26,479 bases of DNA, taken from an uncultured Desulfurococcaceae archaeon (GTDB lineage Archaea; Thermoproteota; Thermoprotei_A; Sulfolobales; AG1). Shown one piece after another: positions 1 through 15,536 of this stretch. Every line of letters starts with the position of its first letter. Position 1 is the first letter of the stretch. The notes under the pieces are model-generated. The model saw only the letters and a list, made by a program, of their open reading frames with translations. It did not search any database and was not told where the DNA came from. The position numbers and the translations under genes were made by a program. The stretch lies in assembly GCA_964517475.1 (NCBI GenBank), contig CAZFDB010000001.1:1-26479 (forward strand), given 5' to 3'.

Positions 1-1673
1 GACATAATCAATATATTCAACTCGAAATGAATCTCCTCAACACCCTTGATAGGTAAAGTAATTAGAACCACGCGAGCAAAATAATTATAGCCAAACATCC
101 AGAACAACCCAATTAATACCGAGCAGATAGCCAGAGTAAGATAAGGAATATACATAACAGGACTAGCCTCATGAGCCTCGTGAACATGATGCTCCTCATC
201 AGATCTCATGAATAAGTAGCCTACAGCTCTTATAGAGTAGAAAGATGTCAAGAAAGCCGTCACAAGTAGTAGAACAGGGATCATTGAATAACCCGCTAGA
301 ACAGAGACATCGATCACGAGATCCTTACTCCAGAAACCTGCTAGAGGAGGCACCGCAGCCAAAGATAAGGCTGCTAAGTAACTAGATAAAATAGTTATTC
401 TCATATAACTCGCTAAACCCTTCATATCATTTATATATCTGCTATGAACAGCATGGATCAGGGCACCAGCACTGAGGAACAATGCTGCTTTAAAAACAGC
501 GTGGCTGAGAAGATGAGAGAACCCGGCAACAATACCGAGTCCAGGCTCACTGATCAAACCAGATAAAGCCGTTGCAACAAACATGTAACCTATCTGCGAA
601 GCCGTGGAGAAAGCCCATATAAGCTTAAGCTCTCTAGCAACCACAGCCATTGTAGCCATCATAAAAGCTGTGAAAGCCCCTATCGAAGCAATAATAAGAA
701 AATACTCTCTGACTTGGAGAAGAGCTATATCACCACTTATAGACGCAACAGATATGAATATAGGCGAGAACCTCAACATAAAGTAGACACCGGCTTTAAC
801 CATAGTCGCAGCATGAATAAGAGCTGAAACACTCGCAGGACCAGTCATCGCCGTAACCAGCCACTCATGCAGAGGAAATTGAGCACTCTTAGCCAGAGCA
901 CCTAAAGTGGTTAGCAATAGAAATATTGTTAAGAAACCACTGGAAGACAAGTCTCTGAAGACCGAGGCCAAAACATTATTCGAGTATAAATCAGGTATAA
1001 AACTTGTTCCAGTAGCAAATATCATGTATCCTAAACCCAGCAAGAGACCAATATCAGCAACACCAGTCATCAAAATAGCTCTCACACCAGAGTGACTAGG
1101 TGAGAAAAACATCGATTCACCAAACACAACCCTCCCTCTATCCCCAACATAGGTGGGTTCATCATCATCTCTATACCAATGACCAATAAGCGCATAAGAA
1201 GCAAGTGAAGTCCCCTCCCAACCAATTATGAATAGAAGAAGATCACCAGTCATGACAAGTAGAAGCATTGAACCTACAAAAAACGTGAAGAAGACCCAGT
1301 ATCTATGCTCACCATAATCATTCTCCATATACTTAAGACTATAGATAGCGATGAGTAGAGATATCCATGCAACCATTAGAGACATTATAGATGATAAACC
1401 ATCTATATAACTCGTGAATCTAAAGATTATTCCACTCTCCCGAGAAAGAGGAATAGTGAACCATACAGAGTCTCTTGAAATAATTATCGTCGAAGGATTA
1501 CTCCAAATAATTACTAGTATAGGTATCGTAAGTATGGCTGAGACAGCTATCGAGAATACTCCTATGAACCCAGATAATCTCTTCTTAAACAACCCTACTA
1601 ATCCAGCTATCGCGGCCCCCACAAAAGGTGTTATCCATACAAGATCAATCCACCAAATAATCTGTGTACTCAT
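1..1673 (-). CDS. nuoL: NADH-quinone oxidoreductase-like subunit L (antiporter-like), 3'-truncated by window edge
   Basis: Not in the ORF track because it has no stop in the window. Hand translation from ATG 1673 (RBS GGTGAGG upstream) gives MSTQIIWWIDLVWITPF..., with the NuoL motif AKSAQFPLHEWLVTAMTGPASVSALIHAATMVKAGVY. The frame appears open to position 3. Confidence 0.92.
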   Translation of the reverse strand, partial: MSTQIIWWIDLVWITPFVGAAIAGLVGLFKKRLSGFIGVFSIAVSAILTIPILVIIWSNPSTIIISRDSVWFTIPLSRESGIIFRFTSYIDGLSSIMSLMVAWISLLIAIYSLKYMENDYGEHRYWVFFTFFVGSMLLLVMTGDLLLFIIGWEGTSLASYALIGHWYRDDDEPTYVGDRGRVVFGESMFFSPSHSGVRAILMTGVADIGLLLGLGYMIFATGTSFIPDLYSNNVLASVFRDLSSSGFLTIFLLLTTLGALAKSAQFPLHEWLVTAMTGPASVSALIHAATMVKAGVYFMLRFSPIFISVASISGDIALLQVREYFLIIASIGAFTAFMMATMAVVARELKLIWAFSTASQIGYMFVATALSGLISEPGLGIVAGFSHLLSHAVFKAALFLSAGALIHAVHSRYINDMKGLASYMRITILSSYLAALSLAAVPPLAGFWSKDLVIDVSVLAGYSMIPVLLLVTAFLTSFYSIRAVGYLFMRSDEEHHVHEAHEASPVMYIPYLTLAICSVLIGLFWMFGYNYFARVVLITLPIKGVEEIHFELNILIM

Positions 1674-13185: not shown

Positions 13186-13947
13186 TCAGGGAATAATAAT
13201 TAAATCAAGATCTTTTACGAGAAAAGATCTCTCAAATAATTTTCTGGCTTCTAAGATTATTTTCTCCTCATCTCGATATCTAGAGCTTATATGATATAGA
13301 TATAATCTTTCAGCCTCTGATTTTAAAGCTATTTCAACAGCCTCTGAAACAGTGCTGTGTCCCGAGATCACAGCCTCTTCTAGATCCTCTGAAGAAAATG
13401 TGGCGTCATGAATCAATATATTTGCTTTTTTACAGTGATTCACAACTTCATCGCATGGTCTCGTGTCTCCTGTGTAGCATATTTTGTAGCAATCTCCTCT
13501 ATGACTAATCTCTATCACGTATCCAAAACTCTCAATTGAGTGACATACTCTGAATCCTTTTATACGGATCTTGTTGAAAACATGTGTTTCCTCAGGATCT
13601 CTATACTCTAATTCAAAAGATAATTTATGTCGCGACACATTTAGGAAAATATTTATCAGATCTCTTATTTCTCGGGGGGCTATTACGTAGAGAGTATCTC
13701 TTCTATTAAAGAGGGTCATTGATTGTAGAAGAGGTAGTAATCCTATGAAATGATCACCGTGGAGATGTGTTATAGCAATAAATCTTATTTTGAGTGGTGA
13801 TAAACCTATTTGTTGAAGTCTTATCTGACAACCCTCGCCACAGTCTAGTAATCCTATCTCTTTATTGATCTCAATCGCTATTGAGGGATGCCAGCGACGA
13901 TTATTTGGAGAAGCTGCTCCACTACCTAGAAAATAGATCTTGATCAT
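13186..13947 (-). CDS. rnz: Ribonuclease Z (tRNA 3' endonuclease, MBL fold)
   Basis: FLGSGAA, DCGEGCQ, THLHGDHFIG, YTGDTRP, LIHDATF, GHST and YHISSRY. Confidence 0.93.
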   Translation of the reverse strand: MIKIYFLGSGAASPNNRRWHPSIAIEINKEIGLLDCGEGCQIRLQQIGLSPLKIRFIAITHLHGDHFIGLLPLLQSMTLFNRRDTLYVIAPREIRDLINIFLNVSRHKLSFELEYRDPEETHVFNKIRIKGFRVCHSIESFGYVIEISHRGDCYKICYTGDTRPCDEVVNHCKKANILIHDATFSSEDLEEAVISGHSTVSEAVEIALKSEAERLYLYHISSRYRDEEKIILEARKLFERSFLVKDLDLIIIP

Positions 13948-14813
13948 ATCCTCAGGACCTCTACATCGATTTTTTCAGCGAGATTCTCTAAGAGCCTTAA
14001 TTTATCTGATGTGAAAGATTTCTTTTCTACAACAACTAAATTTATTTTCTCATAAGATCTCTCAATACTATCCAGGAATATTCTCAGAAGATCATCGCTA
14101 CTCAATTCCTTGATAGAGTGCTTAGATATGATGTGACCGAAGCAGATCTTATCCTCAATACTCATTCTAGTGAATTTCTCCGAGTAATGAGGCCCCCCGA
14201 AACCCACCGCGAATTTTCTACAAAAGAAATTTTCACTGGATAAAGTCATCTGAATAGCTCTTAACCAAGCCTCGTGGAGAGCCTCATCTCTCCACTCCCT
14301 CTCTGTGGAACCTATCTCAACAAATATAACAGGTTTCTTATTACTCGTTGGACCATGATGAGTAGCCTCGAAACTAATTTCGTAATTTGATAAACCAGAT
14401 TCTTGAGCCACCTCATATATATTTCTTAGAAGAGTTGTTGATAGAGAGGGTTTGGTATATGATAACTCGAGTGGTCTTCCACCATGTGAAGTGTCTCTAC
14501 GTGGATTACCTGGGTAATGAACTGTTAGGCTAGGGATGGAAGCCGATGAGCTATGTCTCGATAAAATTATTATTGATTCACTTAATAAGAAGTATTGATC
14601 TAGGTATTCTAAATAGATAACATCATCCGAGAAAGCTCCTAGGAACTCTATATTATAAGAACTATTCTCATCAGATCTACACATGATCTTGAGCCTAGGA
14701 TCATTGTAATCAAAGCATTTCAGCTCTAGATCCTTAATTAATTTATGGGCTATACCACTACCAGCTAAATCATTTAAACTATACGCGAAACCGTATCTAT
14801 TCATCTCAACCAC
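13944..14813 (-). CDS. dtdA: Archaeal D-aminoacyl-tRNA deacylase (DTD2)
   Basis: SRHSS..PSLTVHYPGN, EATHHGPT, FVEIGS, VGFGGPHY and GHIISK. Start is GTG 14813 or ATG 14804. Confidence 0.9.
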   Translation of the reverse strand: MVEMNRYGFAYSLNDLAGSGIAHKLIKDLELKCFDYNDPRLKIMCRSDENSSYNIEFLGAFSDDVIYLEYLDQYFLLSESIIILSRHSSSASIPSLTVHYPGNPRRDTSHGGRPLELSYTKPSLSTTLLRNIYEVAQESGLSNYEISFEATHHGPTSNKKPVIFVEIGSTEREWRDEALHEAWLRAIQMTLSSENFFCRKFAVGFGGPHYSEKFTRMSIEDKICFGHIISKHSIKELSSDDLLRIFLDSIERSYEKINLVVVEKKSFTSDKLRLLENLAEKIDVEVLRI

Positions 14814-14865
14814 GATATACTCTATATATACAATAAATCTCTTGTTAAAAAGAAATAATCTTGGA

Positions 14866-14922
14866 TAAAATGATGATACACGCAGGAGCTGATTATGATG
14901 AAGCCCCGCATCACTGATGATT
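14866..14922 (+). ncRNA. Box C/D 2'-O-methylation guide sRNA
   Basis: C box ATGATGA 14870-76, 12-nt guide TACACGCAGGAG, D' box CTGA 14889-92, TT spacer, C' box ATGATGA 14895-901, 12-nt guide AGCCCCGCATCA, D box CTGA 14914-17. All four boxes are consensus with canonical archaeal spacing. Ends are approximate. Confidence 0.92.
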
Positions 14923-15536
14923 ATAAAAAGACTTTGGCCGAGACCCTCAGAAAAAAGATCTCTGAGCTGGATAAAAGAGATTTGATTAGGGAGAATGTTA
15001 TTAGGATCTCTAGAGACTTGATTAGATGCTCTGGTAAAGTAGTATCAAGTATATTAGCAAATAACATAGATGAAGCTAAAAGAGAAATGGGTAGTTGCAG
15101 TGACTTGTTAGAGGATCTCGCGAAACACTACTATGAGGCCCCAGATCTAGTGAGAGGGATCGCTACACAAGCATTCACAGAATACTGTGAAGCTCTACTA
15201 CTCCTTAAAATATTCTCGGGAGATACTGAGGAGTGCGGTGATAAGATCCCTCCGGAGAGTGTGGTGCTTGGAGTACTAGATCTCACAGGAGAATTAAGGA
15301 GAGTAGCTATAAAACTACTAGGTGAATGGGATCTTGATACGGTGAAAGAGATAATAGATCTTATAAAAAACATATATCTAATCCTAAGCCCACAAGATTA
15401 TTCAGATGCCATAGCACCTGGGTATAGGCATAAAATAGATGTTTTGAGAAGAAATATTGAGGATCTAGAGACACTATATAGCGATATTAAAACTAGGAGA
15501 GATCTTATAGAGTCGCTGAGGAAAATCACTCTATGA
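14895..15536 (+). CDS. Translin/TRAX (C3PO)-family RNA-binding endoribonuclease
   Basis: All-helical protein with QAFTEYCEA and GVLDLTGELRR motifs. Start is uncertain (ATG 14895/14898 inside the C' box, or TTG 14934). Confidence 0.85.
   Translation: MMKPRITDDYKKTLAETLRKKISELDKRDLIRENVIRISRDLIRCSGKVVSSILANNIDEAKREMGSCSDLLEDLAKHYYEAPDLVRGIATQAFTEYCEALLLLKIFSGDTEECGDKIPPESVVLGVLDLTGELRRVAIKLLGEWDLDTVKEIIDLIKNIYLILSPQDYSDAIAPGYRHKIDVLRRNIEDLETLYSDIKTRRDLIESLRKITL

Follow-up and report, generated by a model that had tools for sequence, protein, structure and literature searches.

A probable box C/D guide sRNA overlapping the start of a translin-family gene in an uncultured Sulfolobales archaeon

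Between a D-aminoacyl-tRNA deacylase gene and a translin-family gene of an uncultured hot-spring archaeon lies a short run of motifs that resembles a box C/D guide sRNA, the second half of which is also protein-coding. Is this a working RNA gene, and if so, which RNA does it guide modification of? An earlier note, written from the sequence alone, had described a C/D guide sRNA here with four boxes and two 12-nt guides. The window analysed, a 26,479-nt stretch of DNA, is contig C1 of a MAG (G000; 72% complete, 236 contigs, 38% GC), for which a DNA metagenome from a hot spring is the one sequencing run on record. We consider positions 14870–14917 of the plus strand very likely to be a working archaeal box C/D sRNA gene that had gone unannotated, with one conserved guide and a probable action on rRNA.

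Box anatomy and RNP machinery

The features of the locus are as follows.

14814–14869: AT-rich intergenic region, common to the sRNA and the divergent deacylase gene
14870–14876, plus strand: C box, ATGATGA; RTGATGA is kept in the same-genus genomes G001–G004
14877–14888, plus strand: D′ guide, TACACGCAGGAG, 12 nt, putative orphan; identical in G001 and G002
14889–14892, plus strand: D′ box, CTGA; invariant in five genomes
14895–14901, plus strand: C′ box, ATGATGA; contains the ATG codons of the reading frame at 14895 and 14898
14902–14913, plus strand: D guide, AGCCCCGCATCA, 12 nt, conserved guide; also codes for K-P-R-I
14914–14917, plus strand: D box, CTGA (codons ACT GAT); invariant in five genomes, lost from G005
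14895–15536, plus strand: translin-family reading frame (Pfam PF01997 Translin, E = 1.2e-9), overlapping the 3′ half of the sRNA

The plus-strand letters of 14870–14917 bear out the anatomy first described: all four boxes have canonical C, D′, C′ and D sequences, both guide spacers are exactly 12 nt, and a 2-nt linker (TT) joins the D′ box to the C′ box. The span originally given, 14866–14922, comprises the boxes with short flanks and matches the Rfam span (14866–14920), and the N+5 nucleotides had been read correctly, with the D′ guide facing U and the D guide facing G. A length of about 50–55 nt is probable for the mature RNA.

The 1.23-Mb genome contains a single match to the strict four-box pattern, where the analytic chance expectation is 0.0002, and the pattern was absent from all 20 first-order Markov simulations. 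The generic archaeal C/D model RF00095 (snoPyro_CD) aligns over its full length (14866–14920) with 32.4 bits and E = 2.4e-5 in E-value mode. This falls below the gathering score of 45, which is why the Rfam scan of the window at gathering thresholds gave no match. Several Sulfolobus and Pyrococcus sR families followed RF00095 in E-value mode, with sR5 reaching 27.5 bits. The RNA alone folds no better than its shuffles (z = 0.01) and displays no competing fold, which is expected because the guides must stay single-stranded; no terminal stem is evident in the element. Compared with archaeal box C/D sRNAs in general, the element shares the C, D′, C′ and D boxes, the guide length, the size and the geometry of the N+5 rule; one of its guides has candidate complementarity to same-genus rRNA. 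It differs by its sub-gathering Rfam score, the lack of an evident terminal stem and its one orphan guide.

The genome encodes two of the core proteins that such an RNA would need, with a fibrillarin gene (PF01269, E = 1e-103) adjoining a Nop5 gene (PF01798, PF21572) in an operon on contig C62. Upstream of the element, the divergent deacylase gene (Pfam PF04414) occupies 13944–14813 on the minus strand, and the AT-rich spacer between the two contains TATA-like runs at 14823–14830 and 14832–14839. Judged by its composition, this spacer may be the promoter of the sRNA. Transcription would then start from the spacer, L7Ae would bind the C/D and C′/D′ motifs, and Nop5 and fibrillarin would assemble on the RNA, as in established C/D RNP biology. 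The guide would pair with rRNA, and 2′-O-methylation would fall on the nucleotide that faces the fifth position upstream of the D box. Anatomy, conservation and the Nop5–fibrillarin operon together support the original identification as a C/D guide sRNA.

The same genome holds at least ten further unannotated C/D sRNA candidates, on contigs C128, C10, C7, C9, C41, C43, C94 and others, with 10–11 bp of complementarity to same-genus rRNA; in several of them the D′ box reads AUGA and the C′ box AUGAUUA. Two groups of near-identical C/D-like elements of 46–49 nt are also present in 3–5 copies on different contigs (C43, C105, C57, C205 and C7; C80, C81 and C187). The copies of one group start with ATGATGATATC and end with GATCTCTGA, and those of the other start with GTGATGAGGGG and end with GGGTTAGTCCTGA. 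From their sequences, these look like duplicated or mobile sRNA genes.

Overlap with the translin-family gene and conservation within the genus

The C′ box, D guide and D box double as the start codon and first codons of the translin-family reading frame, an overlap that the earlier note, although right about the anatomy, had not mentioned. The frame encodes 213 residues if read from 14895 and 212 if read from 14898. The C′ box opens with A, G or T depending on the species; the second ATG (14898), invariant even in G005, is the likelier start codon. Translin orthologues are present in 30 of 31 related genomes.

A complete sRNA occupies the same place in four of the five same-genus genomes (G001–G004). 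Across these four and G000, a 22-nt stretch running from C′ box to D box is identical at 21 positions, synonymous codon sites included, and the sole difference is a C/T change within the D guide that still allows pairing with G. The translin proteins of the same five genomes are only 49–75% identical, and the codons just downstream of the sRNA span differ at most synonymous sites. In the fifth relative, G005, the peptide M-K-P-S-I-T is still encoded, but mostly synonymous changes have destroyed the C, C′ and D boxes. Because the 22 nt are frozen at synonymous sites while the proteins diverge, and because G005 retains the peptide without the boxes, the alignments provide strong evidence of selection on the RNA as well as on the protein. 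In G003 and G004, unrelated sequences stand in place of the D′ guide, such that the genus contains three unrelated D′ guides.

These observations bear on whether there is an RNA gene here at all. Both ATGATGA and CTGA are built from the letters of common start, stop and Asp codons, and the 3′ half of the element is coding, so the boxes might reflect chance or a constraint on the N-terminal peptide M-K-P-R-I-T-D. The chance expectation given above argues against the first of these. A peptide constraint is at odds with the conservation of the boxes in the non-coding 5′ half, with synonymous sites that are frozen only within the sRNA span, with the peptide of G005 persisting without boxes, and with the occurrence of the same guide outside any reading frame elsewhere. 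We therefore regard the absence of an RNA gene as scarcely credible, and treat the element as an sRNA gene.

Overlaps of this kind have been described in other archaea, and the element fits into the known class of 5′-overlapping sRNAs. Archaeal C/D sRNA genes often overlap the ends of reading frames, and Tripp et al. 2017, as summarized in PMC7994747, put 5′ overlap at 7% of these genes. In Pyrobaculum, Lui et al. 2018 (PMC6009581) defined a ‘category 1’ in which sRNA and gene overlap in sense and the start codon falls within the C′ box or D guide. They reported that 88% of such overlapping guides were without targets, took 8 bp as the minimum pairing, and discussed excision versus a block of translation by L7Ae. 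Our element resembles category 1 and the 7% class in having its start codon in the C′ box, in the expected co-transcription with the mRNA, and in the two possible fates as sRNP or mRNA. It differs from Pyrobaculum category 1, where the free guide keeps its function, in that here the overlapping D guide is conserved and the free D′ guide is the orphan. One shared transcript could thus give either an sRNP or a translatable mRNA, and maturation of the sRNA would compete with translation of translin.

A guide family across the order

A search of 301 genomes of the order for the D-guide core GCCYCGCAT in C′/D context gave matches in 20 of them, from six families, with 0 control matches; relatives were collected with patterns in which a portion of the guide was fixed, and for this portion the apparent conservation is to some extent circular. 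Three Ignicoccus genomes have the core (GCCYCGCAT/CCCCGCAT) as well. Some 40 nt separate the sRNA from the downstream translin start in G019 and G029, with stops in all frames, hence the guide is conserved there independently of coding. D′ guides in other families are GAAACCCCGG-like, and the D′ guide is not common to the family. From these comparisons, the sRNA appears to be one member of a guide family with representatives in several families of the GTDB order Sulfolobales, among them IHOsR205 of Ignicoccus hospitalis.

IHOsR205 is listed with RNA-seq read counts by Dennis et al. 2015 (PMC4644070, supplementary file 1). We located it at its published coordinate in G031 and found the same guide in two further Ignicoccus genomes. 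Its D guide, AACCCCGCAUCU, is identical to the AGCCCCGCAUCA of our element at 10 of 12 positions and is followed by a CUGA D box. The remainder differs, with GAAACCCCGGUA as the D′ guide, CCGA as the D′ box and UGUGGA as the C′ box. Unlike our element, IHOsR205 overlaps no coding gene, sitting instead within a cluster of sRNAs or following a tRNA gene.

A looser pattern returned the same guide family together with a distinct one aimed at 16S rRNA near position 375. The D guide of this separate family, UUUCCCGCAUU(A/U), is complementary to 16S CAAUGCGGGAAA, and it was found in G019, G029, G097, G139, G145, G157, G175, G187 and G076, coexisting with the guide studied here in the first two of these.

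Members of the studied family adjoin the translin gene in several families, at loci L056, L058 and L063–L065 (genomes G233, G018, G019, G029 and G044) and at L033 (G016). The arrangement varies: the sRNA lies upstream on the same strand in f7, is convergent at the 3′ end of the gene in f6 and f8, and lies downstream on the same strand in f12. In f4, a decayed copy is found inside the translin start.

The geometry of the overlap raises the question of whether the element acts mainly in cis, as a K-turn/K-loop platform at the 5′ end of the translin mRNA. Such a platform would recruit L7Ae, perhaps with Nop5 and fibrillarin, block the start codon and thereby set translin levels, with guiding in trans secondary or absent. 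An invariant ATG inside the C′ box (a matter of geometry alone) and the adjacency of sRNA and translin gene in several families are compatible with this, and L7Ae represses translation through K-turns in 5′ UTRs in Sulfolobus (Daume et al. 2017, PMC5539422). Lui et al. raise the idea for sRNAs that overlap a gene's 5′ end in sense (PMC6009581), and in the work of Tripp et al., as summarized in PMC7994747, a reporter placed downstream was expressed less when there was a 5′ overlap. Our element is similar to the elements of Daume et al. in that translation could be repressed by L7Ae bound to a motif at the start site; those mRNA elements are single K-turns without guides, whereas here the sRNA is complete, with two guides, and its L7Ae binding is predicted. 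A pure L7Ae platform would not need a guide that is itself invariant at synonymous sites, and the relatives in f7, f8, f9, f10 and f12 overlap no start codon but keep the same guide. We thus consider a mainly cis-acting element unlikely, noting that the two roles can coexist, and favour a guide that acts in trans.

Candidate rRNA targets and the pairing with translin

No rRNA was found in the 72%-complete assembly, so we searched for targets in the 16S and 23S rRNA of the same-genus genomes G002 (identical sRNA), G003 and G005, and of other sRNA-bearing genomes. For calibration, the duplexes of other clear sRNAs of G000 with G002 rRNA are 10–11 bp long and begin at position 2 counted from the D box. 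Some relatives have rRNA genes far longer than the models, with 16S genes of up to 3001 nt and 23S genes of up to 4971 nt (G003:C44, G010:C14 and G188:C35; loci L013, L044, L045, L069, L071 and L072), and rRNA introns are therefore indicated.

In 16S rRNA, the D guide forms 8 contiguous Watson–Crick pairs with CGAUGCGGGCUA at positions 2–9 from the D box, placing N+5 at G777 (G002 numbering), which we take to be about E. coli G821. Six genomes contain the sRNA together with a 16S gene, and in every one of them positions 2–9 pair at this site, as they do in the 16S rRNA of the Ignicoccus genome G021; in G085 there are 9 pairs, one of them G–U. Runs of 8 pairs are attained in 59% of trials with shuffled guides, which puts the 16S match at chance level. 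The 16S segment that the earlier note proposed, with mismatches and a bulge, exists in the same-genus 16S rRNA and pairs with the D guide without a bulge, but over a length that chance would supply.

The D guide also pairs with GGAUGUGGGGUU in domain I of 23S rRNA, where positions 2–12 are matched (11 positions, two of them G–U pairs) and N+5 is G312 (G002 numbering). This match has a shuffle P of about 0.03, and positions 2–12 are paired in both G002 and G003; in this genus, a G–U pair lies next to the methylated position. The homologous site in f8 and f9 reads AGAUGAGGGGU(U/C) and pairs with the guides of those lineages at 10–11 of 12 positions, the pair types at positions 1, 11 and 12 changing between lineages. 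A G–A mismatch is present there at position 6, next to the methylated nucleotide. By the usual rules, a mismatch in this place would impair methylation. A guide with U at position 6 (CCCCUCAU) would compensate the A of the f8/f9 site, and most matches to this variant were coding false positives; one is a likely sRNA, in G039, a genome without assembled rRNA, and the 23S rRNA of G177 has the f1-type site.

The conserved D guide most likely acts on rRNA. The 23S site is at least as good a candidate as the 16S site: ∼G312 of 23S rRNA has close to an even chance of being the target, while ∼G777 of 16S rRNA is possible and rather doubtful, the remaining odds falling to both sites or neither.

Several other matches were considered. 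A 16S site near position 597 (CUGCGGGGCU) forms 9 Watson–Crick pairs in G002 and G003 only, and was rejected as a family target: it has mismatches at positions 2–3, and other sRNA-bearing genomes read CUGCCGGGCU there. A perfect 12/12 complement of the D guide at G000:C77:2615–2626 (plus strand) was also rejected, being antisense to a reading frame whose mRNA carries the guide's own sense. That frame, of >1087 residues, resembles a surface protein, and the match is probably chance. Other genome-wide near-matches of both guides lie in coding-like sequence at background frequency. The 12 assembled tRNAs contain no usable target, with tRNA-Met pairing with the D guide only at positions 5–12, from N+5 outward. 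For IHOsR205, Dennis et al. 2015 predicted 23S G1229 and G2139 as D-guide targets, which differ from the candidates here, and none for its D′ guide (PMC4644070). We found no convincing pairing near 1229 in I. hospitalis 23S rRNA and did not reproduce G1229/G2139, although the numbering of that paper may differ.

A C/D-like sRNA on contig C44 of G000 (∼336–396, plus strand) has a D guide containing CCCACCGAC, complementary to 23S GUCGGUGGG. This sequence is immediately 5′ of the candidate 23S site, and the region may be a small cluster of guide targets.

The D′ guide behaves differently. Its best run in same-genus 16S or 23S rRNA scored 6.5, below the shuffled mean of 7.25; it matches none of the 12 assembled tRNAs, and its near-matches across the genomes G000, G001 and G002 are at control level. 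We take the D′ guide to be a lineage-specific orphan.

This result bears on the two interpretations first offered for the locus. In one, both guides would address adjacent 16S stretches (about E. coli 805–826) of a divergent rRNA. The 8-bp pairing of the D guide with GAUGCGGG lies in that segment, and the sequence on either side of the D′ guide is loosely similar to the complement of the adjoining GUCCCAGCUGUA. In G002, which has an identical sRNA and a complete 16S gene, the D′ guide forms at most 6 contiguous pairs in 16S rRNA, N+5 is unpaired at the proposed D′ site, and the swapping of the D′ guide in G003 and G004 adds to the case against it. With a D′ guide that does not pair with the adjacent stretch (6.5 versus 7.25), a dual 16S guide is not supported and we judge it highly improbable. 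The other interpretation, a drifting or orphan guide, describes the D′ guide well but not the D guide. What we retain is a single conserved guide, with candidate sites in both rRNAs.

Our understanding of C/D RNPs is unchanged by this finding. It brings to light a non-coding gene, missing from the annotation, in an uncultured Sulfolobales archaeon from a hot spring, and ties the gene to an sRNA that has been detected in Ignicoccus. The 22 nt that are at once guide RNA and coding sequence provide a clean natural case of double constraint, for which the sister species G005, having lost the RNA function and kept the peptide, serves as a natural control. The locus departs from the reported tendency of 5′-overlapping guides to lose their targets, and offers a testable instance of competition between sRNP assembly and translation of the host mRNA. 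More speculatively, and with a low probability in our estimation, the sRNA and the translin gene may be a conserved functional pair, in which sRNP assembly would choose between guide and translin protein and one guide may serve both GAUGCGGG (16S) and GAUGUGGGG (23S). If so, the long-lived adjacency of the two, as a 5′ overlap in f1, a relic in f4, an upstream copy in f7 and a 3′-end neighbour in f6, f8 and f12, would reflect a coupling between the guide RNA and a gene whose product is an RNA-binding, nuclease-like protein.
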